From a virus (Duplodnaviria; Heunggongvirae; Uroviricota; Caudoviricetes): 64,000 nt of DNA. A model generated the notes under the pieces. It was given only the letters and a program-made list of their open reading frames with translations, searched no databases and had not been told where the DNA came from. Location of the stretch: the IMG/VR virus record IMGVR_UViG_3300035698_027074; one strand, 5' to 3'. The translations under genes were made by a program, and so were the position numbers. The stretch's first letter is position 1. Each line of letters starts with the position of its first letter. Shown in pieces: positions 6,957-47,354 of the stretch.

Positions 6957-6999
6957 TATCGTTTGGGTACTAATAGGTATTAGAATAAGAAAAAAAGGT

Positions 7000-7103: not shown

Positions 7104-7107
7104 TGTA

Positions 7108-17163: not shown

Positions 17164-17190
17164 TAATATTGCATAAACTTATATTTAAAG
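17164..17190 (-). promoter_or_regulatory. Recurrent promoter-associated motif, site 4 (variant)
   Basis: taatattgcataaacttatatttaaag; about 60-80 nt upstream of the 17102 start codon on the minus strand. Confidence 0.35.
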
Positions 17191-26777: not shown

Positions 26778-28202
26778 TTAGATTCTGGAAGTACATACTT
26801 CTCTGCCATTATTCCCCTCACACATGAATGTAAGAACATTATATCCTATCAATGTATCAAATATAAACCTTGAATCTGTTGTTGTCATTAGTTCAGGAAA
26901 TTCCTCCATTGCCCATACATTTTCCTGCCCACTAAAATATTTCACACTTCCACCATATGCTGTAAAAACACCGACAGTCTCATTACCAGCGTATTTCTTA
27001 ATTTCTGAAAGTCCTTCAATATAATTTTGTGGCCAACGATGTATCATGGTAGTGTTCCTAGCTTGTACTATTCCACTGTAAATACACCATCCACAAATTA
27101 TAAAAATTATGAAAATAAACCATCTGTCCTCATCAAAGAGTTTTCCCAAAAATAGTCCACCAATTATTGCCAATTGTGGGAATATGATTGACAAATATCT
27201 ACTTTCTATTACCATCAATTTTGTGAAATAAAGGAAAAAGAATAGTGTGGAAAACGTGACCAAGAAAATCATTGGTAAAACCATTTTTTCGTCTGTTGAT
27301 TGTATATAATAAATAATACCAAAAATACAAAGAACGGTAGTTATTTGACCAAATGTTGCTAATATATCCAATTTAGGACTAATCAGTTTGAATGCTGATA
27401 ACATCCATTCTGGATGTTGTGTTGGAGATTTCCCTTTAAAGAAAATATCCAATGGTTGGAAATACGGAAAACCATATGCAACAAGATTTCTTATGATTAT
27501 AGGACTAAAAACAAGAGCTGCTACTATACAACTCATAATAGAAAATTTCAGGAATTTATAATCATTATTCTTTAATACCTTCCATAATGCATAAATCATT
27601 AAAAATATTGGGAAAACAAATCCACTTGTCTTGATATACATTGAAAGACCCATAAAAATACCTGTTAATATAGAAGATTTCATTGAAGTCATTTTTAAAA
27701 TAGAATATGTAATCAGTATTGAAAAGAATGCTATTGGTATATCAACATAAGCTAGTAATGAATAATGTGTAAAGGTTGGAATAACCATCAATAATGAAAC
27801 AGATGCCACAGAAGCTATAGGGAATATCTCAATGTCACCCCACATACTCTTTTTTGACAGTTCTTTTGAAACTATATAAACCATAACCAGTGTTCCTGTC
27901 GCAAACAATGCAGATACCATTTTACAGACTGAGAGTGAAACACCAAAAATCTTGAAGAAAATAGCGTATATTATTGGTATACCCAGTGAATATGATAATG
28001 GTCTTGGGTTTATGGTTCTAAAATATGTTGGTAACTTTCCAGTGGATATTAATTCACCAATTTCCATATAGAGGATTTCATCTTCACCCAAATAATCAGT
28101 TTTAGTAGAATAGTAGACTAAAATCCCACCTAATAGTATTAAGATGATTATAGGTAGGTGTTTTAATTGTTTTAAACTTATATCCACTTCCATTAGTATC
28201 AA
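26778..28202 (-). CDS. GT-C fold membrane glycosyltransferase, ArnT/PMT-like (GT39/83 family), 474 aa
   Basis: First extracytoplasmic loop GEDEILYMEIGELISTGKLPTYFRTINPRPLSY (DE catalytic motif plus PL.Y) followed by about 10 more TM helices. Confidence 0.6.
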   Translation of the reverse strand: MILMEVDISLKQLKHLPIIILILLGGILVYYSTKTDYLGEDEILYMEIGELISTGKLPTYFRTINPRPLSYSLGIPIIYAIFFKIFGVSLSVCKMVSALFATGTLVMVYIVSKELSKKSMWGDIEIFPIASVASVSLLMVIPTFTHYSLLAYVDIPIAFFSILITYSILKMTSMKSSILTGIFMGLSMYIKTSGFVFPIFLMIYALWKVLKNNDYKFLKFSIMSCIVAALVFSPIIIRNLVAYGFPYFQPLDIFFKGKSPTQHPEWMLSAFKLISPKLDILATFGQITTVLCIFGIIYYIQSTDEKMVLPMIFLVTFSTLFFFLYFTKLMVIESRYLSIIFPQLAIIGGLFLGKLFDEDRWFIFIIFIICGWCIYSGIVQARNTTMIHRWPQNYIEGLSEIKKYAGNETVGVFTAYGGSVKYFSGQENVWAMEEFPELMTTTDSRFIFDTLIGYNVLTFMCEGNNGREVCTSRI

Positions 28203-28378: not shown

Positions 28379-29449
28379 TCAGTATTTAAAATTACCTCGA
28401 CTTTGATAATCTTTATCATTCCTAAGACCTTTTACAAATTCGTCAATCTTTTCTATAACCTCTGGTGTTGGATGGTGTGGGATTAATACCTCATAATAAT
28501 TTGTTTTGAGTTCTGAAAAGTTTTTTCCCATCATTTCTTTAAAATCATCTATAACATTATTGTAAGATAATGAATTAATAGCTTCCAACATGTTATCCAA
28601 TTCAAAATTATTTATCAGTTTTAACTTTCGTACTGCTGTTTTTTTTGGTATTTTCCTTATGTGTATTTCATCCCTGTTACATTTGGTCAAGATGAAAATT
28701 CCCCCTATATCCGTTGGTTTGTCTATTATATATTTGGTTATAGTCTCCACATTGACATCTATTGGTATTTGTGCCCATTTCATACTTAAGTTGTAAATCA
28801 AACTCTTTATTTCAAGTTCTAACCTTTGTTTATTGTTCAATCTCTTTTTTAAAAATGGACATGATAAAAAGTTGTGGTTCATTAATCTTATGGTAGTTGC
28901 ATAATCATGTATCTTGTTCCCTCTCAATAAATTATACTCATCACCCAAGAAACCATAACCTTTATTTGATAGATAAAGAGCTGTTGATGTCTTACCTGTA
29001 TGAGCACATGCCGAGAAAAGATATGTCTTCTCTTTGATTGGGTCAAACAGTCCAGAAGAATGAATGAAAACAAATCCCTTTTTTGCCATAAGATATATTA
29101 TGACTGGTTCTACAACCATTCTCCATATAAACCTTTCAGAAAATAGTTTGTTACCACACGTAACTATTCTAACTGGCTTTTCACCAAAATTAACTATTGA
29201 TTTCCATTTGACAAACTTATAGGATTCTTCAAAGTAAACTGATTTTCTTTTTACATAATATTTCCCATCTAAAAGCATTTCCCAATCTTTTGGTTTTTCA
29301 AATTTAGTAAATATAACTTCCAAATCAACATCAGACGGTTCTGCAGTATATCTGTAATACATCTCACTAATAAATTTCATTGGAACACTTTTACTGTCAC
29401 CAATCAACTTAAACTTAAACCCATGTAGGTTAAAATAAACTGTTTTCAT
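28379..29449 (-). CDS. HprK-related (HPr kinase C-terminal domain-like) P-loop kinase, 356 aa
   Basis: GFVFIHSSGL...YLFSACAHTGKTSTALYLSNKGYGFLGDEYNLL matches the HprK core G.L.HG....G.GVLI.G.SG.GKSE.AL.L...G..L.ADD. Confidence 0.55.
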   Translation of the reverse strand: MKTVYFNLHGFKFKLIGDSKSVPMKFISEMYYRYTAEPSDVDLEVIFTKFEKPKDWEMLLDGKYYVKRKSVYFEESYKFVKWKSIVNFGEKPVRIVTCGNKLFSERFIWRMVVEPVIIYLMAKKGFVFIHSSGLFDPIKEKTYLFSACAHTGKTSTALYLSNKGYGFLGDEYNLLRGNKIHDYATTIRLMNHNFLSCPFLKKRLNNKQRLELEIKSLIYNLSMKWAQIPIDVNVETITKYIIDKPTDIGGIFILTKCNRDEIHIRKIPKKTAVRKLKLINNFELDNMLEAINSLSYNNVIDDFKEMMGKNFSELKTNYYEVLIPHHPTPEVIEKIDEFVKGLRNDKDYQSRGNFKY

Positions 29450-30507: not shown

Positions 30508-31452
30508 TTATTTAGATTTTTTAGATTTTGGTACCTGTAACCCTGATGTTGCTGACATTGTCTCTCTTAATGCTTCAAGTGGTACTGCGAAAACTATTGT
30601 ATTACTTTGGTCTTGACTTATATCTGAAAGTGTCGAAAGTCTTCTTAATTCCATTGCTCCTCTTGTTTTCAAAAGTTCGTCTGCTGCTAACTTCAAGTTC
30701 TTTGCTGCTTCTAGTTCACCTGTTGATTTAATTACTACAGCTCTCTTTTCTCTTTCTGCCTCTGCTTGTCGAGCCATGATTCTTTCCATGTCTCCTTCTA
30801 GTTTTATGTTCTGTAACTCAACTGATTGTATGTCAATTCCCCATGCTTCAACATGTTTGTCTACTTGTTTCTTGATTTCTTTTGCAATTTCTTCCCTCTT
30901 TGCTAGTAAACCATCAAGTTCATACTGACCTGATATATTTTTAAGTGTTACTTGTGATTTGTTCATCACTGCGTGTCTGTAATCTTCTATGTTCAATATA
31001 CTCTTTTTTGTGTTAACCACTTTCATATAGACAACACCATCTATGTTAACTGAAACATTATCTTTTGTCAAAACTCTCTGTGGTTCAATGTCCATAACCC
31101 TAATTCTTGTATCTCTCCAAATTACTGATTCTATGAAAGGTATTTTGAAATAAATACCTGCACCAACTTTCCTGTTGAATTTTCCTAATTTTAGAATTAT
31201 AGCTTCTTCCCATTGTTTATTGACACCAAAAGAAGAAAATAATACACCTAACCCTAAAATAACAGCTATACCTGTTCCGATAAGTCCACCTAATTGTATT
31301 CCACCAAAAATAAGACTATACCCGAAATATACCATTGCTATTATTGTTGGTATTAAAACAAACCAAAGAAGTGTTCCTCCTGATTTTTCTGGTTCACTTG
31401 TCTTCACTATCTCTTCTTCATATTCTTCATCTTCGTGTTCTTCATCTGTCAT
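30508..31452 (-). CDS. SPFH/Band 7 family protein, stomatin-like, 314 aa
   Basis: N-terminal TM region then IILKLGKFNRKVGAGIYFKIPFIESV...VNIDGVVYMKVVN and coiled-coil AEREKRA. Confidence 0.7.
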   Translation of the reverse strand: MTDEEHEDEEYEEEIVKTSEPEKSGGTLLWFVLIPTIIAMVYFGYSLIFGGIQLGGLIGTGIAVILGLGVLFSSFGVNKQWEEAIILKLGKFNRKVGAGIYFKIPFIESVIWRDTRIRVMDIEPQRVLTKDNVSVNIDGVVYMKVVNTKKSILNIEDYRHAVMNKSQVTLKNISGQYELDGLLAKREEIAKEIKKQVDKHVEAWGIDIQSVELQNIKLEGDMERIMARQAEAEREKRAVVIKSTGELEAAKNLKLAADELLKTRGAMELRRLSTLSDISQDQSNTIVFAVPLEALRETMSATSGLQVPKSKKSK

Positions 31453-31514: not shown

Positions 31515-32174
31515 CTAATTCTGAGAAGTTTTCTCAAATTTGATTATATTAAAGAGTGGTAATAAGAAAGGTATTCTGACTTTCTTCATCATTTTAAAAC
31601 GTTCTTTGATTAATTTTTCAACATTCTTTGTTGACTGAATGTGTTTCTCTTTCATTGAATGTTTTTTAAACCCTGTAAAATTTTGTAAAAATCTATATAC
31701 CAAAGAATCTGACGGATTTGAAACAACAAACTTCCCTTCTGGTTTTAAGACCCTGTGAATTTCTTTAATAGTAAAATATATGTTATTAATATGTTCAAGG
31801 ACATCAGAACAAAAAACAATATCAAATTTATTATCTTCAAATGGAAGTGATTTCCTTATATCATGTTCAATTAATTCTATGTCATCATACTCACAATGAT
31901 TTTCAATTATTTTTTTAGTTCCTTCTTCTATTTTTTTATCAAGGGCAACTACGTGAGAAAATTCTTGTAATGTTGGAATAAACAATCCACTCCCACAACC
32001 TAAATCCAATACATTTAATTCATCTACTCCCCCATCCCAATCTATTTCCGAAATTTCTAACATGACATTCAATCTCTTCCAGAACAACCATCCTGTCTTG
32101 AAATTGGTATATGCTTTACATCTGGTTAACCCATATTCTTTTATCTTCTTATTGGATATTTTATACAGTGACAT
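31515..32174 (-). CDS. Class I SAM-dependent methyltransferase, 219 aa
   Basis: Motif I VLDLGCGSGLF; motif II/III DIVFCSDVLEHI. Confidence 0.65.
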   Translation of the reverse strand: MSLYKISNKKIKEYGLTRCKAYTNFKTGWLFWKRLNVMLEISEIDWDGGVDELNVLDLGCGSGLFIPTLQEFSHVVALDKKIEEGTKKIIENHCEYDDIELIEHDIRKSLPFEDNKFDIVFCSDVLEHINNIYFTIKEIHRVLKPEGKFVVSNPSDSLVYRFLQNFTGFKKHSMKEKHIQSTKNVEKLIKERFKMMKKVRIPFLLPLFNIIKFEKTSQN

Positions 32175-33447
32175 TCAACACATCCCCCGTTCTCTTTATC
32201 CACCCTTCGTCTACATTAACATACCATACTGAATCATTTATACTTACTATATTCAATTTACATCTGTGAATAACAAACCAATCGTGGTATGCTTTTAGAT
32301 AAGTTGGTTCATCTTTCGTTATATCTTTTATTTGAATACATGACCTATCTACATAATCAGAAAATTCTCCCCTGTAGGAATATTTTGGTATATTAAATAA
32401 CCATATAAAAAGTAAAATAAAACATATTCCATATAAATACAACCTATACTTTTCTGGTATGGATTTCACTATTTCCATAGCAAGGAATGGGAAAATAATT
32501 ATGTAATATCTCCAACTCATAAAAAAGTTAATTCCTATTATCTGAACTACTATAAACAAAAGAAGAAAAACCGATATAAAAATTGTTGATACCCCTATTT
32601 CTTTTGTCTTGATAAGATTATAAATAGTTGATAAAATACCGATAATCAAAAGTAAATCTATTGGAAGAAGGTAGAAACCACTCCCATCTATGAAATTTCT
32701 TTCTGGTTGATTGGATTGTATCCCCTCTTTCAACCATTCCTCACCAGACTCTATATTCGTTAGAGATTGACCAGTAAATGTTGCTATTATATCCCCATTT
32801 GTAAAAATAAAATTCCTTAAATATAATGGAGTAATAATCAATAATGCAATCAATATTGATAAGAAATATGGGTTCTTATAAAATTGTTTGGTAAATATTT
32901 CTTTCCATTTAAAAATAAGAACAGAAAGACCATAACACCCTAAAATCAAAAACCCTGTTCCTTTCACTAAAGGGCATAGACCAGCAAAGATACCAGATAA
33001 TATTGGTTTTTTATGGAAAAAATAATAACATGATAATGCAAAAACCAACATTATAGTATCGTTAGCTCCGAATATTAATAATCTTACGAACATAAATGAC
33101 AAGAAAAGGACTGGTATAGCCTCTTTCTTTATCTTCCACATCAAAACACCAAGTGAAATCATTATTAAAACATCAACTATACTTGGTGTTAACCCGATTA
33201 TTATAAAGAAACCATATAATAATGGTCCTAGTGGTGGATAAAAATATGGATATGTTTTATAAACAAAAACCCTTTTGTTTGCAGTAAACCCCTCACCAGT
33301 AAACATTTTAATTGGGTCTTGATAAATCTCTTTTCCTGTAACATAATGGACATAATTATCTGAATGTGAAGAAATATAATAGAGGGACATTATTGGCATC
33401 ACTATTACCAAAATGAAAAGGAATATTTTTTCAATTTCAATTTTCAT
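32161..33447 (-). CDS. Polytopic membrane protein, GT-C-like glycosyltransferase candidate (428 aa, about 11 TM helices)
   Basis: YPYFYPPLGPLLYG loop after the first TM and a large hydrophobic core. GT-C membership is inferred from topology and context. Confidence 0.4.
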   Translation of the reverse strand: MKIEIEKIFLFILVIVMPIMSLYYISSHSDNYVHYVTGKEIYQDPIKMFTGEGFTANKRVFVYKTYPYFYPPLGPLLYGFFIIIGLTPSIVDVLIMISLGVLMWKIKKEAIPVLFLSFMFVRLLIFGANDTIMLVFALSCYYFFHKKPILSGIFAGLCPLVKGTGFLILGCYGLSVLIFKWKEIFTKQFYKNPYFLSILIALLIITPLYLRNFIFTNGDIIATFTGQSLTNIESGEEWLKEGIQSNQPERNFIDGSGFYLLPIDLLLIIGILSTIYNLIKTKEIGVSTIFISVFLLLFIVVQIIGINFFMSWRYYIIIFPFLAMEIVKSIPEKYRLYLYGICFILLFIWLFNIPKYSYRGEFSDYVDRSCIQIKDITKDEPTYLKAYHDWFVIHRCKLNIVSINDSVWYVNVDEGWIKRTGDVLNVTV

Positions 33448-33644
33448 TGGTCTACACCCACCACTTTAATAATTACTTCTACATCATCACCTTCACCAAA
33501 TGAATAATCACCATCAAACATTCTTGAAACAGATTGGGATATATTAATGATAAAGGATTTATTTCCCAAAATTCTGAGAAATCTTCCATGTTCATTGGTT
33601 TTCATTTTAGATACTTTCCCTATTATTTTCAGTTCGTTTTTCAT
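33444..33644 (-). CDS. Small hypothetical protein (66 aa)
   Basis: ORF track; wedged between a radical SAM gene and the GT-C-like gene, overlapping both by 4 nt. Confidence 0.35.
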   Translation of the reverse strand: MKNELKIIGKVSKMKTNEHGRFLRILGNKSFIINISQSVSRMFDGDYSFGEGDDVEVIIKVVGVDQ

Positions 33645-35065
33645 TCAGGCACCTGTTTCTGATTACTCAAGAGATAATGAAAAACTGGTTTGACAAACCT
33701 CAACATTCTAAACATCTCCATTGGTTTGAATATGATTCTTCTTATATAACCAAGATTGAAATAACATTCTCTGATTGCCTTCTTACACCAGTTATCCAAA
33801 TCCTTGAATGTTAAATGTGGATAACTTACCTTCCCATTTTCATTTAAATGATTATCTTGTTTTAATTTGTAATACAAAGGTGTTTCTTTATAGACCCTTG
33901 GAACAGCGAATTGATATGTTGATATTTTTAAATTTTTAGCCCAATTTATTGTTTCTTTTATGGTCTCATCAGTTTCTAATTTTGATGTTCCAAAAAGAAA
34001 ATCACCATGTATCTCAATATCAAGTTCATTACATACTTTTGTGAATTCTTCCAATTGTTTTTTTGTTACTCCCTTATTCATTTCTTTTAATATCTTGTCA
34101 CTACCAGACTCATAACCAACATGTAATACATGAAGACCACTCTTCTTACATTTCTTCAGAATTTCTTTTGTGTACAACATGTCTCCTCTTGCGTATGTTG
34201 ACCATCTTATTTTTATTCCTCTCTCCAAAATCCCTTCTGCAATTTTTTCCAACCTTTCTGGAGGAACAGTTCCGTCCTGAAAAAATACTTCTTTTATTTT
34301 TGGTGGTTTTCCTATACAAAATGATGTTATATGTTGTTTTGAAATCCAATTAATTTCATTTAATACGTCATCCAATTTTCTTTCTGATGTACCACATGTT
34401 TTGAAAATTGTGTTTGGATAAAGACAAAATGTACAATTTCCCCAATAACATCTTCTAGAACTAACAAACATATCAACAAATGGATGGAATAAACTACCTA
34501 TCCTATAATTTTTTATATTAAGGTATTTCAGATATGTTTTTGATACCCAAGGTAAATCATCTATTTCTTCTTGGTTCATTCTACCCCCAAGAATAACTTT
34601 ATCAAAATTTTCACCGTCTGCAATTCTTTTAACAATATATTCGAATTCACCTAAAACATAATGGTCAACAAACTTAGAATCTGTTGGTATCATACTAACC
34701 CAAGGACCCACAAATATTGTTTTAGAACCTATCGTCTTGAACATCTTTGCTAACTCTAAATTAACCTTCAGGCCATCTTCTGATATGTATATTACAACAA
34801 CATCTGGTTCTGGATTATCTTTCATAGTTCTTGAATCATAATAATCATAAAAACATGAATATTTTTCAAAAACAAAATCGTTGGGTATGCCCTCAGTTTC
34901 TGCATCTATTATTTTACATTTATGTTTATGTTTTTCGAGTAACCCAAGTGTTGATGCAAGAAATATTGGTGGCCATTGACTCCCACTAATCGTTGTGCCA
35001 TCCCATCTAGCATTGTGGATATAATTTTTCCTAATAAATGGATTAATCAATAATACTTTTGTCAT
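33641..35065 (-). CDS. Cobalamin-binding (class B) radical SAM enzyme, 474 aa (tandem array member 1)
   Basis: SSRRCYWGNCTFCLYP (CxxxxxCxxC variant); N-terminal MTKVLLINPF... B12-domain-like region. Confidence 0.65.
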   Translation of the reverse strand: MTKVLLINPFIRKNYIHNARWDGTTISGSQWPPIFLASTLGLLEKHKHKCKIIDAETEGIPNDFVFEKYSCFYDYYDSRTMKDNPEPDVVVIYISEDGLKVNLELAKMFKTIGSKTIFVGPWVSMIPTDSKFVDHYVLGEFEYIVKRIADGENFDKVILGGRMNQEEIDDLPWVSKTYLKYLNIKNYRIGSLFHPFVDMFVSSRRCYWGNCTFCLYPNTIFKTCGTSERKLDDVLNEINWISKQHITSFCIGKPPKIKEVFFQDGTVPPERLEKIAEGILERGIKIRWSTYARGDMLYTKEILKKCKKSGLHVLHVGYESGSDKILKEMNKGVTKKQLEEFTKVCNELDIEIHGDFLFGTSKLETDETIKETINWAKNLKISTYQFAVPRVYKETPLYYKLKQDNHLNENGKVSYPHLTFKDLDNWCKKAIRECYFNLGYIRRIIFKPMEMFRMLRFVKPVFHYLLSNQKQVPE

Positions 35066-35697
35066 TATTTATCATCTTTTCTTTTAAATAACATTACCCA
35101 AAAACCATTCAAACATGTTGTCTCAAAATCAAATAAAATAAAATTATTTTTCTTGAACGATTCTGTAAATTCGTCAAATTCATAGTCTTGTTCTGGTGGT
35201 CCTTTTTCTGGAGTAAATTTGTAATATAAATCTGCTAATTTTCTGAACAAGGAATCCTTGTTTGGTTGAACTAGAAGGACATATTTATCACTTATCCTAC
35301 ACATCTCATCCACGTAAGGTTGAAGGTTTGACTTATTAAAATGTTCTATCAATCCTTCAGAATGTATCAAACCGATTTCCCTGTCTTCAAAATTAGTGTC
35401 AAATGCATCCATACAATAGACCTTCAATCCCAATTTTTTACTACAGTGTTGGGCTGATGTTTCTGAAGTGTCTATACCGACTATATCCTTAAATCCCATT
35501 TCTTTATACCATAACATAGACCTCCCTGTTCCACATCCAATATCAACCATCTTCAAATCTCTTGGTATATTTTTTAGAATTTTTTTCATACTTCTCTTAA
35601 CAATCCCCAAAAAAAATCTAGCTAAGAAACTCAACTTCATTTCTGGGAAATCTTTCCATGTCTTTTCCCACTCCTCTATTACTTCTTTTCTATCCAT
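35065..35697 (-). CDS. Class I SAM-dependent methyltransferase, 210 aa
   Basis: MVDIGCGTGRS (motif I); LIHSEGLIEH. Confidence 0.6.
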   Translation of the reverse strand: MDRKEVIEEWEKTWKDFPEMKLSFLARFFLGIVKRSMKKILKNIPRDLKMVDIGCGTGRSMLWYKEMGFKDIVGIDTSETSAQHCSKKLGLKVYCMDAFDTNFEDREIGLIHSEGLIEHFNKSNLQPYVDEMCRISDKYVLLVQPNKDSLFRKLADLYYKFTPEKGPPEQDYEFDEFTESFKKNNFILFDFETTCLNGFWVMLFKRKDDK

Positions 35698-35701
35698 ATT
35701 C

Positions 35702-37141
35702 TCACCCCGTTACATAAAAAAATGCTCTTGCCATTTCCTTAATTTCTTTCCATGACCTTATTCTCGTCAATCTTTTCAGAATATATTTTGGTCTCATATA
35801 AAATTTTTTATGAACATACCTCAATGCTTTCATTAAATCTACATTACTCATCTCATCTGTCCTTATTACAGCCTCTTCAGCTAATCCATATGCGTCATAA
35901 CCACCAAAATTATAATCCCTAATAAGGTAACCATTTTCTTTAAAAAAATCATATAATTTTGTTCCTGGGTATGGTGTTGTCAATACAAATTGACAGAATT
36001 CTGGTTCTAATTCAAGAGCAAATTGTAATGTATTTTCAACTGTTTCCCATGTCTCACCTGGTAATCCTATCATAAATGACCCTGAAGCATGTATTCCAGA
36101 CTTTTTTGTCAGTTCAAACGTTTTTCTGATGTCATCAATTTTTATACCTTTGTTGACAATATCCAATAACTTTTGGTTTCCTGACTCCACCCCAAAAAGA
36201 ATATTCCAACAACCAGATTTTTTCATCACTTTTAACATTTCCTCATCTAGTGTATCAACACGACTATTACATGACCATGAAACCTTTATTTTTCTTTCAA
36301 TAATTCCATTGCATACTTCTATTACTCTTTTCTTGTTTACTGTAAACGTCTCGTCAAATATGTAAATTTCTTTGATTCCATATTTGTTCACTAGAAGTTC
36401 TATTTCATCAAGTATATTTTCTGATGACCTAGAATACCATCCTTTCCCAGAACCTCTCCATACAGTAGAACCACCAACAATACAAAAATCACATTTATAT
36501 GGGCATCCCCTACTTGAAATTAATGTCATAAATGGAAACTTTTTTGCAAAAGTGATTGAATTATATTTTTTAATTGATAATAAATCATATGCAGGAAATG
36601 GTAGGTCATCTAAATTTTTGAATGGTTCTGTTGGTGGGGTACTTATTATCTCCTTGTCTTTTCTGTAACTGATTCCAGTAACCCATTCCAAATCTCCATT
36701 ATTTTCCAAAACATTTAATAATTTTTCCAGTGTTTTTTCTGACTCACCACGAATCAAAATATCAATATCCATGAATGTCTCTAATGTTCTCTCTGGTAGG
36801 ATTGGTGCTATGTGAGCATCATCAAGAATTGTTATAATTTTTTTGTTGACTCTCTTCGCTACCGTAGCTGTCTGTGCATCAAAAGACATTGTAGATGGTG
36901 AAGATTTAAACAGAACTATGTCTGGACTGAACTCCTCAATTATCTTTTCTATATCAATCCATTTCAAATCAAGAGCATTTGCATCTAAAAGTTTTATATC
37001 AACCTTGTCCCTCAGATAAGACGCAATGTAAGCTAAATCTATTGGTGGATATATTGAAACTGGGGAAGTTCCAGCACATCTTATCTCTCTGACTACGGGT
37101 ATTCCGTGAAATCTTGGGGGGTTAATTAACATCAACTTCAT
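35702..37141 (-). CDS. Cobalamin-binding (class B) radical SAM enzyme, 479 aa (tandem array member 2)
   Basis: SSRGCPYKCDFCIVGG; N-terminal MKLMLINPPRF...; C-terminal HKKFYMRPKYI. Confidence 0.7.
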   Translation of the reverse strand: MKLMLINPPRFHGIPVVREIRCAGTSPVSIYPPIDLAYIASYLRDKVDIKLLDANALDLKWIDIEKIIEEFSPDIVLFKSSPSTMSFDAQTATVAKRVNKKIITILDDAHIAPILPERTLETFMDIDILIRGESEKTLEKLLNVLENNGDLEWVTGISYRKDKEIISTPPTEPFKNLDDLPFPAYDLLSIKKYNSITFAKKFPFMTLISSRGCPYKCDFCIVGGSTVWRGSGKGWYSRSSENILDEIELLVNKYGIKEIYIFDETFTVNKKRVIEVCNGIIERKIKVSWSCNSRVDTLDEEMLKVMKKSGCWNILFGVESGNQKLLDIVNKGIKIDDIRKTFELTKKSGIHASGSFMIGLPGETWETVENTLQFALELEPEFCQFVLTTPYPGTKLYDFFKENGYLIRDYNFGGYDAYGLAEEAVIRTDEMSNVDLMKALRYVHKKFYMRPKYILKRLTRIRSWKEIKEMARAFFYVTG

Positions 37142-38757
37142 TTTTTATCACCCACCGACTTCAATAATGATAAGGCACTCTTTATGTTTTCCTTGAATTC
37201 TGAAAATGACCTTATTGAAAAGAATTTTCTCATTATATATTTTGGTCTAAAATAGAACTCTTTATATGCAGTTTTTACTGCTTCTTCCAAGTCTTCTGGT
37301 GTTAAATTGTCATATTTGACAACTGCTTTATTTGTAGCACTATAGAAGTCCGACCAATCATCTACAAACAACTTCACCAACCACCCGTTATCAACACACA
37401 TATTATAGAATTCAGTACCAGGATATGGCATACATATAGGAAATTGTGCTGTATCTGGATTTAATTCTTTTGCAAAATCAATTGTTTGTCTTATTGTTTC
37501 TTTTGTTTCCCCTGGTGCTCCAAACATGAATGTAGCATGAATCCTTATCCCAACCTTCTTTGTATTCTTTATTGTTTCTCTTATTTGTTTAAGAGTTATA
37601 CCTTTTTTCATATTATTTAATATTTTTTGACTTCCTGATTCTACCCCATAAACAATCATGTCACACCCTGACTTCTTCATTCTTTCCAACATCTCTAAAT
37701 CAATTGAATTCACTCTGGATAATGTTCCCCATCTGATTTTCTTATGGATTCCTTTCTCAATCATTAGGTCACAAATATCTAGAACACGTTGCTTGTCAAT
37801 TGTGAATGTGTCATCGTCTATGTAAATATATTTTACTTTATAGTCATCAAGAAGGAATTCCATCTCTTTTATTACATTTTTCGGACTCCTAGCACGGAAT
37901 TGTCTATTGAACAGAACTTGATTCCATACACAAAAAATACATCTACCATAACACCCACGTGACGATAACATTCTAACAAATGGTGTTCTTGTTGTGTTTG
38001 TTTCACGATATTTTCTCATTGGAAGATGGTGTCTTGCAGGAAATGGTAGGTCATCCAAGTTTTGGATTAGTTCTCTGGGTTGTGTTATAATAACTTTTCC
38101 GTCTTTTTTAAATCCTATTCCCTTAACCTTTTCTAGATTATCCAAATTATTAACAACATCCCTTACAGTGTAATCAAATTCACCTATAGCAACCACATCA
38201 ACTGGATATTTTTCCAACAATTCTTTGGGAAAAACCGATGGGTGTGTTCCGACCATCATTAATTTTGAACCATATCTCTTGACTATATCAAATATTTTTT
38301 TGTCATTATCAAATGATGGTGTAGAAGTTTCTATAATTATTAAATCTGGTCTCTGGATTTGGACATATTTCTCAAAACCATCCCAACCTCCCCCTTCAGC
38401 TAAAAAATCACCTAACTTCACTTCTACATTAGTATCCCTTTCAAGGACTGCTGTCGCATAAGCTAATAATAATGGTTCTGAATATGTCCCTGAAACTGAT
38501 TTAGAACTCCATCTACTAAATCTGTTGAATCCTTCTTCCCATGGTAAATTTGCCAATAATACTTTCATTCTCTTTGTTTTCTTGAACATATGATTTTTCT
38601 TGAAATAGTCCTGTGACTCTTTAGATATTCCCAAATCTTTCATCTCTCCCATTGTTGTTCCCTGAATTCCTTCATTTTCTTGAATAGTTAAATCCCATTC
38701 ATTTGTAGTAAATGATAACAATTCTTTTAGAATTTTATTTTCTTTATTAACATCCAT
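37138..38757 (-). CDS. Cobalamin-binding (class B) radical SAM enzyme, 539 aa (tandem array member 3), with an N-terminal extension
   Basis: SSRGCYGRCIFCVWNQ; KEFYFRPKYIM. Confidence 0.7.
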   Translation of the reverse strand: MDVNKENKILKELLSFTTNEWDLTIQENEGIQGTTMGEMKDLGISKESQDYFKKNHMFKKTKRMKVLLANLPWEEGFNRFSRWSSKSVSGTYSEPLLLAYATAVLERDTNVEVKLGDFLAEGGGWDGFEKYVQIQRPDLIIIETSTPSFDNDKKIFDIVKRYGSKLMMVGTHPSVFPKELLEKYPVDVVAIGEFDYTVRDVVNNLDNLEKVKGIGFKKDGKVIITQPRELIQNLDDLPFPARHHLPMRKYRETNTTRTPFVRMLSSRGCYGRCIFCVWNQVLFNRQFRARSPKNVIKEMEFLLDDYKVKYIYIDDDTFTIDKQRVLDICDLMIEKGIHKKIRWGTLSRVNSIDLEMLERMKKSGCDMIVYGVESGSQKILNNMKKGITLKQIRETIKNTKKVGIRIHATFMFGAPGETKETIRQTIDFAKELNPDTAQFPICMPYPGTEFYNMCVDNGWLVKLFVDDWSDFYSATNKAVVKYDNLTPEDLEEAVKTAYKEFYFRPKYIMRKFFSIRSFSEFKENIKSALSLLKSVGDKK

Positions 38758-40194
38758 CTAATTAACCTCCTTTCTGTCTTTCCCACTCTGGGTATGAAAT
38801 ATCGCTTTAAGAAATGCAATACCAGCGTTTGTCATCATTTTAAATTGTCTCCAATTTCTGATACTTATTGCTCGTTTAATTATATATTTTGGTCTCATAT
38901 AAAATTCTTTATGTGCTTTTGCATAAAATTCTTCCACCACTTCTGGATTTGGAACATCTGGGTGTGTGAACATAAATTTTCCTGATGTGTGCTGAATGTT
39001 TTCCCAACTGTTAGTATCAAAAAGGAATTTTCCATCTTTTTTAATCATTTCATACATTCTCGTCCCTGGATATGGTGTTGCCATATTGAACAATGCAACA
39101 TCAACATCTAATTCTTTTGCAAAATCAATTGTTTGTCTCATGGAATATATCGTATCACCAAATAAACCAAACATAAAAAATCCCGATATGATTTGTATTT
39201 TTGCTTCCTTAGCACATTTTACTGCGTTTCTTGACATATCTAAAGTAATTGATTTAGGTATTTTATTTAAAACCTCTTGATTACCAGACTCAAACCCAAA
39301 AGCTACATAATCACAACCAGCTTTCTTCATTTTAACCATAAACTCTTTTGTTACCCCATTTACCCTTATTCCATTAGTTGTTCTGATGTGAATCTTAAGA
39401 CCAGAATCAATAATCAAATCCAACATTTTTTCAGCCCTTTTCATGTCCATATTAAAATTATCATCATAAATTGCAATTTCTTTTACACCATATTCATTAA
39501 CCAAAAATTTAATCTCTTTGAAAACATTTTCTGGTGTTCTTGCTCTGAATTTATATCCGAATATTTTTTTACAACAAAAATTACAGTCAAAAGGACAACC
39601 ACGTGAAGTAAATATACATGCCCATGGGGTATATTGAGTTCCTGCTGAGATATATGGTTTATCAACACCATTACTTTCTAGTAGATGTCTTGATGGGAAT
39701 GGAATTTTATTTGGGTCAAGTGGTTCTCTAGATGGATTATGAAATATTTTCTCATTCTTCTTATAAGATATTCCTTTTATTTTTTCCAATGATTTTCCTT
39801 GAACTATTTCTAAAAATGTATACTCACCTTCAGCCCTGACAACAATATCAAATCCTTGTCTTAAAATATCATCTGGTAATGCAGTAGGGTGTGGACCACC
39901 ACAAACTTTGAGAACATTATCTGGAAGTAAATTGATAAAATCAGTACTCCATTTTTGAGCTGGACTTAATATACTAACTCCAATAATATTATAATCTTTT
40001 GCATATTCTAAAGTCTGTTCTGGTGACAGATTTTTGAGATTAGCATCAAAAATTTTAGGTTTAAAACCATTTTCTTCAAGAACTGATGCTATATAACACA
40101 AACCTATTGGTGGATTGAGCATCCATGCACCAGACTTTCTTGCTTCTGCATAATTTGGTTGGACCAATAATATTTTTTTATTCATCCTTATCAA
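38758..40194 (-). CDS. Cobalamin-binding (class B) radical SAM enzyme, 478 aa (tandem array member 4)
   Basis: TSRGCPFDCNFCCKK; MIRMNKKILLVQPNY...; HKEFYMRPKYI. Confidence 0.7.
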   Translation of the reverse strand: MIRMNKKILLVQPNYAEARKSGAWMLNPPIGLCYIASVLEENGFKPKIFDANLKNLSPEQTLEYAKDYNIIGVSILSPAQKWSTDFINLLPDNVLKVCGGPHPTALPDDILRQGFDIVVRAEGEYTFLEIVQGKSLEKIKGISYKKNEKIFHNPSREPLDPNKIPFPSRHLLESNGVDKPYISAGTQYTPWACIFTSRGCPFDCNFCCKKIFGYKFRARTPENVFKEIKFLVNEYGVKEIAIYDDNFNMDMKRAEKMLDLIIDSGLKIHIRTTNGIRVNGVTKEFMVKMKKAGCDYVAFGFESGNQEVLNKIPKSITLDMSRNAVKCAKEAKIQIISGFFMFGLFGDTIYSMRQTIDFAKELDVDVALFNMATPYPGTRMYEMIKKDGKFLFDTNSWENIQHTSGKFMFTHPDVPNPEVVEEFYAKAHKEFYMRPKYIIKRAISIRNWRQFKMMTNAGIAFLKAIFHTQSGKDRKEVN

Positions 40195-42093: not shown

Positions 42094-42909
42094 TCACCTT
42101 GACAACCTCTGTGTTAATATTATCTTTGTTAAACACAACGTAACTCCTATTGCATTCATTACACCATCAATTGTTTTAGTCCCTGTCCTTAGATATGGTG
42201 TTTTTATGTCAACGTATTTGACGTTATATCCTCTTCTCGTCACCTTGTCTTTAACTCTACCTGCGATTACATTCATTTCTCCTTCTATAGCATATCTTCT
42301 ACTACTGGAAAATCTCAGGACATCCTTAAGAAATGAAACAGTGAATGCACGAAAACCAGATTCACTATCAATGACATTAAAACCAGATATTACTCTTCCC
42401 CATATATTTAAAAACTTGTTACCAAACTTCTTATAATCTGGGTAGTCTGATGTATCTCTTGCCCCGACCACAAGGTCGACAACCTCTTCTTCATTTTCCA
42501 TTGCTTCAATAAGTTTAGGCAAATCTTCTGGGTTGTGTTGACCATCTGAATCCATCGTAATAATAATATCATTATTTAGTTCTGAAATATTCCTATTACA
42601 CAATAACCACCAAAAGGCGTATCTTAGTGTTGCTCCCTTACCTAAATTAATAGGATTAGAAATAACATCATTTGCACCACTGGATTTGGATATTAAACTA
42701 GTTGTATCTGTTGAACCATCGTCAAAAACACATATGTTCGCATATGGTAATACATGTCTACATCCCTTTATAACATCACTAATCGTTTTTTCTTCATTTT
42801 TAGCAGGGATTACAATAAAAATCCTCTGTTTTCTTCCATACAAATCTTTTTTCATTTGTTCATCAAAATCTTTTTGATTCATTAATTCACACCTCCAGTT
42901 ACAAACCAA
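42094..42909 (-). CDS. GT2 polyprenyl/dolichyl-phosphate sugar synthase (DPM1/ArnC/AglD-like), 271 aa
   Basis: IVIPAKNEEKTISDVI...VFDDGSTDTT...IITMDSDGQHNPEDL (GT2 DPM-synthase-type motifs). Confidence 0.7.
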   Translation of the reverse strand: MVCNWRCELMNQKDFDEQMKKDLYGRKQRIFIVIPAKNEEKTISDVIKGCRHVLPYANICVFDDGSTDTTSLISKSSGANDVISNPINLGKGATLRYAFWWLLCNRNISELNNDIIITMDSDGQHNPEDLPKLIEAMENEEEVVDLVVGARDTSDYPDYKKFGNKFLNIWGRVISGFNVIDSESGFRAFTVSFLKDVLRFSSSRRYAIEGEMNVIAGRVKDKVTRRGYNVKYVDIKTPYLRTGTKTIDGVMNAIGVTLCLTKIILTQRLSR

Positions 42910-43292
42910 ACTCCTATAAATGTAATAATCATTCCAAAAGTTGAGAACCCAAGACCCATTAATTGAGAAGATGTTAGAACCTCATTAAGAATTTTTGTAT
43001 TGAGGTACATATTTATCAATAAAATTGGGATTCCCATTCCCATGAAAGCAACAATGACCTTACTTGCGTCTGTTAGAGAAAATGCCCACATTGTTACTCC
43101 CCACATCACAAAATTCAATGATAAAATCAAAATTGCATGGGGGTTTGTTAGTAATTTAAACCAAGTATCAAAACTCAAGAAACTCTTTAATGTTATCTCT
43201 CCAAAACTTGTCATTATGTATTTCTTTGATATATTAATGAAAATATTCACTAAACTCACCAACACAACTAATCCCCATACCAATAATCTCAC
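42882..43292 (-). CDS. Small 4-TM membrane protein (136 aa), candidate ArnE/F- or GtrA-like flippase partner of the adjacent GT2
   Basis: Four hydrophobic helices; overlaps the GT2 gene. Function is inferred from context only. Confidence 0.35.
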   Translation of the reverse strand: MRLLVWGLVVLVSLVNIFINISKKYIMTSFGEITLKSFLSFDTWFKLLTNPHAILILSLNFVMWGVTMWAFSLTDASKVIVAFMGMGIPILLINMYLNTKILNEVLTSSQLMGLGFSTFGMIITFIGVWFVTGGVN

Positions 43293-43918
43293 TTCTTATC
43301 ACCTTCTAATAATATTACTGTTTTAGTGTTTCCCATCCATTTGACCTTGACTTTTCCTTCTTTTTCTAAAATATCAACATATTTTGAAACTGTTGCAGAA
43401 CATATAGTTGATTTCTTTGCAATTTTATTAATCCATGTAAATTTTCCCAAATCACGTATTGTATCCAAAATATGTTCTTTTACAAGGCCATGAGACCCAG
43501 AACTTTTTCTGTATTTTGCCCATTTTCCCCCATTATTATAAAGAGGATTAAGTTTATTTATCAATTTTTTTTCTGACTCCAATATTTCTTTCCAATCTTT
43601 ATCATTTTCATTTTTCATTTTAATATAAGAAAAATATTTTACCTCATCAAAATGTAAACTGTTGCTTTTATGACCTTCTCTAATTCTTTTACCTATATTT
43701 GAACTGGCACCAATATATAATGGTTCCTTTCTTTCATTAAATAATATATATAAACCAGAAATTTTGAAAAGTTTTTCTATATCCTCTATTTCTATCATAT
43801 CAGAGTTTTCTTTTTTAATAAGTTCTGATATAACATCTGCTAACCTTTTCTTATTCATATCTATTTTAATTTTTGAAAGTTTACTCCAGTCACCATCATA
43901 AACCTTAACATTCTTCAT
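43289..43918 (-). CDS. GIY-YIG nuclease-family protein with a C-terminal winged-helix domain, 209 aa
   Basis: ISGLYILFNERKEPLYIGASSNIGKRIREGH...NKLNPLYN (GIY...YIG...R...E...N); C-terminal CSATVSKYVDILEKEGKV. Confidence 0.55.
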   Translation of the reverse strand: MKNVKVYDGDWSKLSKIKIDMNKKRLADVISELIKKENSDMIEIEDIEKLFKISGLYILFNERKEPLYIGASSNIGKRIREGHKSNSLHFDEVKYFSYIKMKNENDKDWKEILESEKKLINKLNPLYNNGGKWAKYRKSSGSHGLVKEHILDTIRDLGKFTWINKIAKKSTICSATVSKYVDILEKEGKVKVKWMGNTKTVILLEGDKK

Positions 43919-44817: not shown

Positions 44818-44995
44818 ACATTATTTTTGTCGAATTCCAAACAACGAAATTGTTGATATAAATGGAAAGAATTATGAACTCCATGAACTATTAGAAGAAA
44901 TAAGGATATATTATGCTTCAAGGTCTAAAAAACAAGCTTTAATTCAATTAATAATTGAAAAAAATAAAGAAATTAAAAAGGAGGTAGAAAAGTAA
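44789..44995 (+). CDS. Hypothetical small protein (68 aa)
   Basis: ORF track; stop overlaps the prohibitin start. Confidence 0.35.
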   Translation: MVTMKQKMGKHYFCRIPNNEIVDINGKNYELHELLEEIRIYYASRSKKQALIQLIIEKNKEIKKEVEK

Positions 44996-45888
44996 TGCCA
45001 ATAAAAACAGAAAAAGACCGACCAATGTATGAAATTCCTGGTTATTTGAAAGTAATGATAGGAATTTTTGTAATTTTGGTCATTGGTTTGATTTTTAACC
45101 CCCTTGTATTTGTAGGAGCAGGTGAACGAGGAGTAGTGATGAAGTTCGGAGCGGTACAGGACAAGATAATGGGTGAAGGTTTGAATTTCAAAACACCTAT
45201 TGTTGAATCAGTGGAGAAAATGGATGTTAAAAAACAGAAATATGAAACAGATTCTTCAGCAGCATCAAAGGATTTACAGATAGTCAGTTCAATAGTAGCA
45301 GTGAATTACAGATTGAATGAACATTCAGTTAATTGGTTGTACCAGAATATCGGTTTGAACTATAAACAACTGATAATTGAACCATCTGTACAGGAAGCAG
45401 TGAAAGCAGCGACAGCACAATATACAGCAGAAGAACTAATAACACAAAGACCATTAGTGAGGGATTTGATGTTACAAAAATTCAGAGAAAAAATGTCAGA
45501 ACTTTCAAGTGGCTCTATAATTGTTGAGGATATTAATATCATTGATTTTGATTTCTCAGAAGAGTTTAACGACGCTATTGAAAAGAAAGTTACAGCAGAA
45601 CAGAAAGCATTGGAAGAAGAGTGGAATTTGGAAAAAGTCAAATTTGAAGCACAACAATCTATAGAGAGAGCAACAGCTGAAGCGAAAGCATTACAGCTAC
45701 AGGGAGAATCAGTAAGAGAATCACCAGAACTTATAGAACTTAGAAAAGTTGAAGTTGAAAAATTAAAACTAGAAGTTCAAACTCAAGCAATAGAAATGTA
45801 CAAGGAAAAATGGGATGGTAAATTACCAATGTGGGTAACAGAAGGTAATATGATGCCATTCATTAGTGTGGGAGGGGTCCCAAGTTAA
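44995..45888 (+). CDS. SPFH/Band 7 family protein, prohibitin/HflK-like, 297 aa
   Basis: SD AGGAGGT 8 nt upstream; TM then GERGVVMKFGAVQD...GLNFKTPIVESVEKMDVK...; coiled-coil AEAKALQ. Confidence 0.7.
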   Translation: MPIKTEKDRPMYEIPGYLKVMIGIFVILVIGLIFNPLVFVGAGERGVVMKFGAVQDKIMGEGLNFKTPIVESVEKMDVKKQKYETDSSAASKDLQIVSSIVAVNYRLNEHSVNWLYQNIGLNYKQLIIEPSVQEAVKAATAQYTAEELITQRPLVRDLMLQKFREKMSELSSGSIIVEDINIIDFDFSEEFNDAIEKKVTAEQKALEEEWNLEKVKFEAQQSIERATAEAKALQLQGESVRESPELIELRKVEVEKLKLEVQTQAIEMYKEKWDGKLPMWVTEGNMMPFISVGGVPS

Positions 45889-46388: not shown

Positions 46389-47354
46389 TTACCAATTTTG
46401 ACATTTGTTTATTAACCATTCATCAGATATTGAACATTGTTGCATTGTTCTAATTGGATTCTTGTAATAAACATCATAATCCAGACATTCTGTTGGATAC
46501 ATTACACCACGTGTTGACTCTACAAACACCCACCCTTTATCTGGTAACCAAGAAGATAACCATGAATGTCCACCACCAGCTACTAACATTACACCATCTT
46601 CCATCTTTGATGGTCCTACCAAAGAAATTGTCGTCAATTCAGGACATCTACCACTAGGTTTTACACAACCAGTATTTTGATGTGATGCTATCCCCATACA
46701 CCTGAGTAATGCTAAGTTTACTCTTGACATTGTTGAACATACACCCTTGCCAACTTCTATTATACCTGTAGCATCAGTGTCTCTACAATAACTGAGTGAA
46801 TAGATTTCATCTGACAAGTCATATTTTATATTGTTTCTTGTCCATGAGATGGTATTTCTTATTGACTGTTCTGGGTCATCATCGACTCTTAATTCATTTA
46901 CTAGATTTTGTATTGTTTCATCAGAACAACTGAACATATTTTCTTCCAAATAAGAATCTGATATTGAATATTCTAACATGTTGTTCCTATATTCATCTGA
47001 AAAGATTTCCTTTCTTTCACATGTTGAAGTATAGTCTGGTAACCACTCACTATTGAAACAAATATATGGTATATTTCCAAAACAATCCCTTTGCCCTTCA
47101 TAACAATCTATTGAATAACAACTACCATCAAGGCAATTTCCTCCACAAACATCAACTACAACATAACCAACATTCTCCTTACAATACAAAACAAAATTAC
47201 CAGCACATGCGTATTCTCCCACTTCACAATCCATATCTTGGTAACTTATTAACTTCAATCTATAATAAATGAATAAACCACCGAGTATTATAATCACTGG
47301 TATTAAGATTAAAAATACTTTTTTGAATTTTTTATCCTTAGACTTCTTTGCCAT
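46389..47354 (-). CDS. Transglutaminase-like Cys-protease-fold protein with N-terminal TM and a Cys-rich ectodomain, 321 aa
   Basis: GVCSTMSRVNLALLRCMGIASH (the Cys of the TGase core) and later GGGHSWLSSWL...GWVFVESTRG (the His/Asp part). Confidence 0.55.
   Translation of the reverse strand: MAKKSKDKKFKKVFLILIPVIIILGGLFIYYRLKLISYQDMDCEVGEYACAGNFVLYCKENVGYVVVDVCGGNCLDGSCYSIDCYEGQRDCFGNIPYICFNSEWLPDYTSTCERKEIFSDEYRNNMLEYSISDSYLEENMFSCSDETIQNLVNELRVDDDPEQSIRNTISWTRNNIKYDLSDEIYSLSYCRDTDATGIIEVGKGVCSTMSRVNLALLRCMGIASHQNTGCVKPSGRCPELTTISLVGPSKMEDGVMLVAGGGHSWLSSWLPDKGWVFVESTRGVMYPTECLDYDVYYKNPIRTMQQCSISDEWLINKCQNW

Follow-up and report, generated by a model that had tools for sequence, protein, structure and literature searches.

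Six class B-type radical SAM paralogues in an archaeal surface-glycosylation locus as probable tailoring enzymes of lipid-linked sugars

A 64,000-nucleotide (nt) stretch of DNA filed as IMG/VR virus record IMGVR_UViG_3300035698_027074 (hereafter, the window) carries six intact genes for radical S-adenosylmethionine (SAM) enzymes on its minus strand, four of them in an array (rS1 to rS4) and two farther along the same locus (rS5 and rS6). On balance, these genes probably encode soluble cytoplasmic enzymes with a cobalamin-type N-terminal domain that serve a surface-glycosylation pathway, tailoring lipid-linked sugars before export. This reading builds on domain content, paralogy, orthology across domains of life, synteny, gene fusions, fold similarity and the glycan context of the locus, from which we infer the sugar substrate, the lipid linkage, actual cobalamin use and the type of reaction.

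All six proteins exceed the Pfam gathering cut-off for the radical SAM domain (PF04055, 29.5 bits), scoring 44.7–109.9 bits (E-values of 2e-11 to 2e-31). An earlier note, written from the letters alone, had ascribed a B12-binding N-terminal segment to each copy; rS1, rS2, rS3, rS5 and rS6 indeed pass the cut-off for PF02310 (32.1 bits) with 40.9–60.8 bits, and rS4 stays below it (Table 1). The paralogy proposed there holds for the whole set, as the proteins align over their full length at 25–36% pairwise identity and share an invariant cysteine triad and GE motif. The cysteine cluster is spaced Cx3Cx2C in five proteins and Cx4Cx2C in rS4, as in OxsB, which corrects the CxxxxxCxxC reported for the copy at 33641. 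Likewise, the C-terminal FYxRPKY motif thought to be common to the array is intact in rS1, rS2, rS3 and also rS6, degenerate in rS4 (CYFNLGY) and absent from rS5. Transmembrane segments were found in none of the radical SAM proteins or methyltransferases of the locus, its glycosyltransferases being membrane-bound. The C-terminal helices of the radical SAM proteins are basic and amphipathic (charge +2 to +7; hydrophobic moment no lower than the 95th percentile of the protein concerned), which is weak evidence of binding to the membrane surface. Six genes of the PF04055 plus PF02310 type within 22 kb, in a block kept in relatives, are far beyond chance.

The radical SAM genes belong to a one-strand locus that runs from position 42909 down to 14350. 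It begins with the glycosyltransferase gene GT2b, a LAGLIDADG open reading frame (ORF), a small protein with two transmembrane segments, rS1, rS2, rS3, the methyltransferase gene MTa and rS4; continues with a 428-aa membrane protein, the methyltransferase gene MTb, an SPFH gene, a 356-aa protein, PMT_2, GT4 and rS5; and ends with two small ORFs, an oxidoreductase using flavin adenine dinucleotide (FAD), rS6, a 152-aa protein, GT2a and AglB. The four array ORFs and the copies at 18662 and 23219 lie where they had been placed before. From rS1 through rS2, rS3 and MTa to rS4 the junctions measure 0, −4, +4 and −1 nt: the rS1 stop codon abuts the rS2 ATG, rS3 and rS2 overlap at 37141/37138 (ATGA), MTa follows rS3 after 4 nt, and the junction at 35065, formerly counted as a second 4-nt overlap, shares a single nucleotide (TAATG). 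These five genes form a tight operon. One methyltransferase gene (MTa) thus interrupts the array as described; the second, MTb, lies two genes downstream rather than inside it. The true start of rS1 is probably the ATG at 40185, giving 475 aa, as called on an identical contig (L170). A GGAGG box precedes the long start of rS2, whose 63-aa N-terminal extension (38569–38757, minus strand) is present in a 75%-identical homologue (P0002) and missing in relatives at 64–72% identity.

Judged by profile scores, none of the six belongs to a characterized family. HpnJ (TIGR03471; equivalog cut-off 577.6 bits) is the top NCBIfam match of five, aligning over almost their full length including the C-terminal FYxRPxY region, with 336 bits for rS2, 277 for rS3, 222 for rS1, 209 for rS4 and 181 for rS6. 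The outlier rS5, which is BchE/MJ_1487-like, scores 113 bits against HpnJ and is the only one led by BchE (TIGR02026; 159 bits, range for the six 52–234, cut-off 481). Since these HpnJ scores lie far under the equivalog cut-off, the six do not collapse into one characterized family, in line with the earlier note. Scores against AprD4 (NF033070; cut-off 500 bits) range from 37 to 144. In a predicted AlphaFold2 (AF2) model of rS2 (mean predicted local distance difference test score, pLDDT, 94.3), the best Protein Data Bank (PDB) fold match is AprD4 (6FD2; TM-scores 0.78/0.82), followed by MgmA (9CCB) and then CysS, OxsB and TsrM. AprD4 is also the closest PDB sequence, with an E-value of 6e-31 for rS3 as single sequence and 9e-51 for a profile. 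The nearest named relatives are proposed or proven non-methylases, namely HpnJ and BchE by hidden Markov model (HMM) and AprD4 by structure. As the best HMM and the best structure both represent enzymes that act, or are proposed to act, on sugars, they point to sugars for the six, and sugar-ring chemistry seems to be a common trait of the characterized enzymes related to the HpnJ-like ones.

Comparison with related loci was based on two segments of one contig from an Aenigmatarchaeota metagenome-assembled genome (MAG; L001 and, farther along, L171), a Gribaldobacteria locus of the Candidate Phyla Radiation (CPR; L006) and a Methanoperedens MAG (L008), among others, scoring each of their radical SAM ORFs against the six window proteins. 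The scores single out one-to-one orthologues for each of rS1, rS2 and rS3 in DPANN archaea, CPR and Methanoperedens, with margins of 130–480 bits and cassette order kept. The Aenigmatarchaeota MAG retains all six at 60–70% identity, ordered rS1-rS2-rS3-MTa-rS4-MTb-GT-C-unknown-PMT_2-rS6-GT2a in L001 and GT4-rS5-FAD oxidoreductase-STT3 in L171. In a 72%-identical relative (L169), GT2b lies directly upstream of the array, and the order is GT2b, small ORFs and rS1-rS2-rS3-MT-rS4, then an epimerase and a pair of GT-C paralogues; the LAGLIDADG gene is missing. The Gribaldobacteria and Methanoperedens loci combine rS1, rS2 and rS3 with a 210-aa methyltransferase and a GT2, the former adding PMT_2 and the latter Wzx and further radical SAM genes.

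Among the individual groups, rS1 orthologues are 52–66% identical (DPANN, CPR, Methanoperedens), and those of rS3 occur in L001, L004, L006 and L008. In the loci scored, orthologues of rS4 and rS6 are confined to those of Aenigmatarchaeota type. For rS4, a rare subgroup with 47 representatives at E ≤ 1e-30, these are in L001 (495 bits) and P0121 (68%); rS6 has its orthologues in L001, at 567 bits, and in L004, at 491 bits, and its adjacency to GT2a is kept in L001/L171. The rS5 orthologue (P0283, 70%) follows GT4 in L171. MTa orthologues of 207–211 aa hold the same position in L001, L006, L008 and L169, which makes MTa a conserved cassette member beside rS2 or rS3. By these sequence comparisons, the six are ancient paralogues, each with a distinct conserved role.

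Run against a collection with a single genome for each GTDB species, an rS2-orthologue profile matched 330 stretches, almost all from MAGs. The bacteria concerned are Omnitrophota, Elusimicrobiota, Sumerlaeota, Dehalococcoidia, Nitrospirota, Desulfobacterota, Planctomycetota and CPR; the archaea are DPANN, Hydrothermarchaeota and Methanosarcinales. A GT2 gene lies within four genes of the rS2 orthologue in 66 of 80 loci, and any glycosyltransferase in 58 of the 61 loci of at least 10 kb, compared with 18 of 33 where an rS1 probe had picked out more distant class B radical SAM genes. Often a GT2 directly flanks the rS2 orthologue on either side, in the order GT2b-rS2-GT2a. A GT2b-type gene stands immediately upstream in 22/79 loci and a GT2a-type gene immediately downstream in 26/76; the strict GT2-rS2-GT2 triad (13/72) is an undercount due to the labelling threshold, the window-based counts being more robust. 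Other recurrent neighbours include sugar epimerases/dehydratases, NDP-sugar transferases, UDP-glucose dehydrogenase, hexapeptide acyltransferases, Wzx and STT3, the last in six loci, bacterial ones included. Fusions join rS2-type or rS4-type radical SAM proteins to class I methyltransferases (P0026, P0151 and the rS4-type P0123) and an rS2-type protein to a GT4 (P0167). Metagenome contigs hold many further clusters of three to seven class B radical SAM genes interleaved with methyltransferases and glycosyltransferases. The earlier note had left the choice between a sugar, a lipid carrier and a peptide as substrate; genomic context and fusions strongly favour the sugar.

Several unusual architectures turned up alongside. 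Some metagenomic polypeptides contain between two and four modules of the class B radical SAM type (P0179 with 2096 aa, P0203 with 2331 aa, P0155, P0156, P0159, P0160 and P0188) and look like fused tandem arrays. The densest array seen, on a bacterial MAG contig (L010; JAUSHA010000053.1, 41–17116), packs eight class B radical SAM genes into 17 kb together with a GT2 and a methyltransferase. Beside the GT2-rS2-GT2 triad, a HemN-like (class C-type) radical SAM gene occurs in L007 (5754–6833), L061 (7382–8488) and four other bacterial loci, and may provide an additional radical tailoring step.

Table 1. Features of the radical SAM locus and its flank. TM, transmembrane segment.
Feature	Coordinates	Strand	Evidence and remarks
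rS1, class B-type radical SAM	38758–40194	−	CPFDCNFC; PF04055 88.1, PF02310 58.9 bits
rS2, class B-type radical SAM	37138–38757	−	CYGRCIFC; PF04055 89.9, PF02310 41.8 bits; HpnJ-like core member
rS3, class B-type radical SAM	35702–37141	−	CPYKCDFC; PF04055 109.9, PF02310 49.7 bits
MTa, class I SAM methyltransferase, 210 aa	35065–35697	−	PF13649 50.2, PF08241 48.2 bits
rS4, divergent radical SAM	33641–35065	−	CYWGNCTFC; PF04055 44.7, PF02310 17.7 bits (cut-off 32.1)
rS5, class B-type radical SAM	23219–24634	−	CPYNCVFC; PF04055 83.3, PF02310 60.8, PF19864 30.7 bits
rS6, class B-type radical SAM	18662–20116	−	CYGQCIFC; PF04055 56.7, PF02310 40.9 bits; paired with GT2a
GT2b, GT2 glycosyltransferase	42094–42909	−	PF00535 69.3 bits; one C-terminal TM (247–265)
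Small 2-TM protein, 110–134 aa	40178–40582	−	just upstream of rS1; homologue in L004/L005
428-aa polytopic membrane protein	32161–33447	−	putative GT-C-fold glycosyltransferase; AF2 pLDDT 88.3
MTb, class I SAM methyltransferase, 219 aa	31515–32174	−	PF08241 74.3 bits; kept in L001, L169
356-aa protein between GT-C genes	28379–29449	−	no family match; 337–339-aa syntenic homologues in L001, L169
PMT_2-type GT-C (ArnT/PMT-like)	26778–28202	−	PF13231 33.1 vs 26.1 bits; ~12 TM; kept in L001, L004, L006
GT4 glycosyltransferase	25238–26305	−	PF00534 98.3 bits; GT4-rS5 adjacency kept in L171
FAD-dependent amine-oxidase/phytoene-desaturase-type oxidoreductase	20358–21641	−	PF01593 51.1 bits; PRK07208-type matches; same place in L171
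GT2a, GT2 glycosyltransferase (MftF/PgaC/EpsD-like)	17185–18204	−	PF00535 56.2 bits; two TM
AglB/STT3 oligosaccharyltransferase	14350–16677	−	PF02516 56.2 vs 24.5 bits; closes locus
LAGLIDADG_3 ORF, free-standing, C-terminal helix-turn-helix	40689–41708	−	between GT2b and array; missing there in L169, L001
GIY-YIG plus MarR-like ORF	43289–43918	−	other side of GT2b

Several glycosyltransferases in the locus (Table 1) may frame the radical SAM steps. GT2b resembles polyprenyl-phosphate sugar synthases, its NCBIfam matches being AglJ (76.7 bits), PpgS (75.3), dolichyl-phosphate hexose transferase (49.2) and ArnC (42.5). The 428-aa protein matches nothing in Pfam or NCBIfam, and the top 20 PDB fold matches of its model are all GT-C enzymes, including Pmt4, ArnT, ALG9/12, STT3, DPY19, Emb and AftB (TM-scores 0.42–0.55; E-values 1e-3 to 0.4). 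It has only 14 homologues, which share an invariant Asp30; one of them carries PF09594, and those with a source label comprise an Aenigmatarchaeota MAG protein and entries termed 'hypothetical'. On the strength of the model, it likely represents a new, previously unannotated GT-C glycosyltransferase family. Its gene is duplicated in some relatives (L169). The locus also ends in STT3 in L004 and L171.

The likeness of GT2b to lipid-phosphate sugar synthases, PMT_2, the GT-C fold of the 428-aa protein, AglB, and the contrast between membrane-bound glycosyltransferases and radical SAM enzymes and methyltransferases free of transmembrane segments together suggest a lipid-linked route. In such a pathway, GT2b, GT4 and GT2a would attach sugars to dolichyl phosphate, or lengthen those already on it, at the cytoplasmic face. 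Each radical SAM enzyme would then use a 5′-deoxyadenosyl radical to take hydrogen from one specific unactivated sugar carbon. The outcome would be C-methylation via methylcobalamin or else, in the manner of HpnJ and AprD4, a rearrangement, a deoxygenation or a contraction of the ring. MTa and MTb would supply conventional methyl groups. After flipping, the GT-C enzymes (428-aa protein, PMT_2, AglB) might move the product to surface acceptors, e.g. a surface-layer (S-layer) protein. The locus appears modular, with GT2b grouped with rS1-rS2-rS3-MTa-rS4, GT4 with rS5 (and the FAD oxidoreductase), and rS6 with GT2a; as these pairings are conserved, each added sugar may have a tailoring module of its own. 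More speculatively, the rS1-rS2-rS3-MT cassette and its GT2 partners could be a horizontally mobile, cross-domain pathway to an unseen polyprenyl-phosphate sugar that is multiply radical-tailored (C-methylated, deoxygenated and/or contracted at the ring to a carbocycle) and destined for surface glycoproteins, a possibility we raise only tentatively.

Base-off cobalamin binding is associated with a downstream G/A-x-S/T-x-X motif, a Gly on β4 and Gly-Glu at α5 (PMC9204698). As AprD4 does not bind cobalamin, the N-terminal domain was examined specifically. The rS2-family profile aligns with AprD4 only over the radical SAM and C-terminal part (positions 168–429), leaving out the N-terminal domain, whereas it runs through the cobalamin domains of OxsB (42–369), TokK (71–365) and MgmA (105–392). 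In this alignment a Thr takes the place of OxsB Ser184/TokK Ser72, β4 bears a Gly, and GEYDYT faces GEYTLRDL of OxsB. Over 89 orthologues, N-terminal D54, D89, G107, H109 and E130 are invariant, and the motif residues are invariant or nearly so. Full motif sets are present in rS1 (GVSIL/GGPH/EGE; the clearest) and rS5 (GISSS, GGHH, GE); rS2 has T-S-T-P-S/GTH/GE, which aligns to the OxsB and TokK motifs, and the rS6 set is partial. From these motifs, most copies are likely to use cobalamin, with rS4 a doubtful case. Should the enzymes indeed use the cofactor, the surface glycan would depend on scavenged B12.

Several points weigh against lipid-linked sugar tailoring by cobalamin-dependent enzymes. 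No paralogue reaches any NCBIfam cut-off of a curated, characterized family. The GT2b matches that suggest a polyprenyl-phosphate product are sub-threshold, the fold scores of the 428-aa protein are modest, and the window yielded no match to the flippases Wzx or GtrA (L001 and L008, two related loci, do carry Wzx); the substrate may instead be an NDP-sugar or a free glycan. A PF02310-like domain alone should not be taken as proof of cobalamin use: AprD4 and ArsL fall inside the class B sequence network yet do not bind cobalamin, rS3 lacks the β4 Gly (DAH), and rS4 lacks the Ser/Thr of the downstream motif as well as a PF02310 score above cut-off. Cobalamin uptake or synthesis genes are absent from the annotated ORFs of the window, which spans 64 kb and not a whole genome. 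Apart from Altiarchaeota, Diapherotrites and Micrarchaeota, DPANN archaea are reported to be largely devoid of pathways for vitamins and cofactors, cobalamin among them (PMC8407392).

The cobalamin-related points among these, together with the top rank of AprD4 by sequence and fold and its similar overall size, favour a variant in which sugars are tailored without cobalamin, the N-terminal Rossmann domain being a relic as in AprD4 and the reactions being limited to radical dehydration, deoxygenation or epimerization. Under such a variant, six enzymes of this type in an organism unlikely to make B12 would no longer be puzzling. We nevertheless hold it to be unlikely, given that it is the domains of OxsB, TokK and MgmA, with their motifs kept, that align rather than that of AprD4, that the N-terminal residues are invariant across orthologues, and that rS1 and rS5 show textbook GxSxL/GG/GE signatures. 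Slightly less likely still is that the enzymes methylate, cyclize or cross-link isoprenoid lipids (the dolichol carrier or scavenged membrane lipids), by analogy to Gmm, GrsA/B and HpnP/HpnR. Several archaeal lipid-modifying enzymes (GrsA/B, Gmm) are B12-binding radical SAM proteins, the ladderane-lipid family TIGR04072 matches with 49–113 bits, the locus includes a phytoene-desaturase-type FAD enzyme, and the amphipathic C-terminal helices could be cited as weak evidence. Against this, all lipid-family HMM scores are far under cut-off, neither the window nor the related loci contain a lipid-biosynthesis gene, and the orthologues in CPR and many bacterial phyla adjoin GT2, GT4, NDP-sugar enzymes, Wzx and STT3 instead, with fusions to GT4 and methyltransferases.

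The same bacterial distribution, universal glycosyltransferase and sugar-nucleotide neighbours and GT4 fusion also weaken the notion that side chains of an S-layer or other surface protein are modified, as by MgmA/Mmp10-like enzymes or by C-methylases of ribosomally synthesized peptides with post-translational modifications (RiPPs). MgmA does rank second by structure and sequence, the RiPP families ApyD and rSAM_ocin_1 match below threshold, and an S-layer-like gene lies ~9 kb away; we nonetheless regard this as improbable, since scores against the MgmA-type methyl-coenzyme M reductase (MCR) glutamine C-methyltransferase family (TIGR04014) are 49–136 bits for a cut-off of 360 and neither a precursor peptide nor a protease nor a RiPP recognition element came to light. 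The least credible explanation, in our view, is a redundant or diversifying local expansion with overlapping functions, an option the earlier note had offered as a 'diversifying paralog family'. It would account for six similar genes in 22 kb and for the four to eight copies per locus of other genomes, yet identity between copies is low (25–36%), and the distant orthologues of rS1, rS2 and rS3 in conserved order, with their wide score margins, and the retention of all six in the Aenigmatarchaeota MAG lead us to reject it.

Among known systems, HpnJ comes closest in family terms, through its match to five of the proteins and its proposed action on a lipid-linked hexosamine: a ring contraction of the glucosamine in bacteriohopanetetrol-glucosamine to a cyclitol ether, which is proposed and not reconstituted. 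The HpnJ gene adjoins the GT2 gene hpnI, an adjacency that resembles the GT2-rSAM-GT2 arrangement of rS2 loci. A survey across bacteria placed HpnJ domains exclusively in genomes with SHC and HpnH; the window, by contrast, stems from an archaeal host, the hopanoid genes shc, hpnH, hpnI and hpnK were not found among its annotated ORFs, and several paralogues occur together with methyltransferases. AprD4, the radical SAM 1,2-diol dehydratase of apramycin biosynthesis, is the closest structure over its full length (~455–475 aa) and likewise acts on a sugar ring (paromamine), but it binds no cobalamin, its N-terminal domain does not align with that of the rS2 family, and its substrate is a soluble antibiotic intermediate outside any glycosylation locus. 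In sequence networks, HpnJ groups together with Fom3 and MoeK5. MoeK5, GenK/GenD1 and Fom3 are class B enzymes; they methylate unactivated sugar or small-molecule carbons in a cobalamin-dependent manner, and MoeK5 acts on a lipid-linked glycan. According to their descriptions, they differ in being single-copy enzymes of actinomycete secondary metabolism.

Archaeal parallels are GrsA/B, Gmm and the calditol synthase Cds, all radical SAM enzymes, of which GrsA/B and Gmm bind B12. For Cds, the contraction of a lipid-linked hexose into calditol has been proposed, chemically parallel to HpnJ. As described, these enzymes sit in lipid-gene contexts, whereas the orthologue groups of the window are shared with bacteria devoid of archaeal lipids. 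The overall plan of the pathway, with a cytoplasmic GT2 making a polyprenyl-phosphate sugar, flipping, and GT-C transfer outside, is that of GtrA/B/C, ArnC-ArnT and Dol-P-Man/PMT, whose parts have counterparts in GT2b, PMT_2 and a further GT-C protein (428 aa). ArnD is a precedent for cytoplasmic modification of a lipid-linked sugar. The window departs from these systems in that a flippase was not found in it and in that the specificity of GT2b is deduced from matches below cut-off; we know of no system of this type with radical SAM tailoring steps.

Most of what is known of class B radical SAM enzymes comes from antibiotics, RiPPs, chlorophylls and lipids. In recent reviews of B12-dependent radical SAM enzymes, the only members from glycan pathways are HpnJ, MoeK5 and the aminoglycoside enzymes, and our literature search returned no description of this cassette or of radical SAM tailoring in archaeal or bacterial protein-glycosylation or surface-glycan loci. 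The enzyme class is known and its architecture typical; what is new is the setting in this pathway, the assembly of several paralogues in one cassette and the spread of that cassette across domains. The locus offers a concrete conserved system, with orthologue groups, partners (GT2, GT4, GT-C, AglB, methyltransferases) and fusions that point to the substrate. If sugar tailoring is its role, the glycobiology of archaea and bacteria would gain a new chemistry of sugars, thousands of 'B12-binding radical SAM' genes in uncultured anaerobes would receive a function, and surface glycans would turn out to carry a B12 (or at least Fe-S/SAM) cost in organisms of minimal genome, which bears on the host dependence of DPANN and CPR. 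Should the cassette also be a mobile cross-domain pathway, the surfaces of ultra-small DPANN/CPR symbionts and of many uncultured anaerobes would rely on scavenged B12.

The window has a guanine-cytosine (GC) content of ~31% throughout and encodes PCNA, an S-layer-like protein and AglB/STT3, and several of its proteins have their closest named relatives in Candidatus Aenigmatarchaeota MAGs. The source is a small DPANN-type archaeon, which agrees with the AT-rich archaeon and glycan/surface locus suspected earlier. Rfam added three tRNA genes missed by ARAGORN (7185–7274, 6999–7104 and 2026–2179, minus strand), whose lengths of 90–154 nt suggest introns, fitting an archaeon. Beyond the locus lie genes for a transglutaminase-like protein (46389–47354, minus strand) and for the S-layer-like protein (746 aa; 48865–51105, minus strand), the latter a candidate glycan acceptor.

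A few features within the locus and at its edge complete the picture. The small two-TM protein upstream of rS1 has a length of 110 aa in the gene call of the identical contig L170. SPFH/Band 7 genes are located both inside (30508–31452, minus strand) and beside the locus (44995–45888, plus strand). The rS2 orthologue of Elusimicrobiota/Endomicrobia loci (L007, L022, L025, L027, L044) likewise has an SPFH gene a few genes upstream, and GT2b stands between the two; in L007 the SPFH gene is accompanied by NfeD, and the HemN-like radical SAM gene also falls between SPFH and the rS2 orthologue. A link of these SPFH genes to membrane microdomains is possible. Finally, LAGLIDADG elements elsewhere interrupt homologous rS2-type genes, in P0172 as part of an intein and in P0145 as an insertion. 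A derivation of the free-standing LAGLIDADG ORF of the window from such inteins is unsupported, as its 23% identity to the P0172 endonuclease (E-value 8e-6) reflects generic family similarity.

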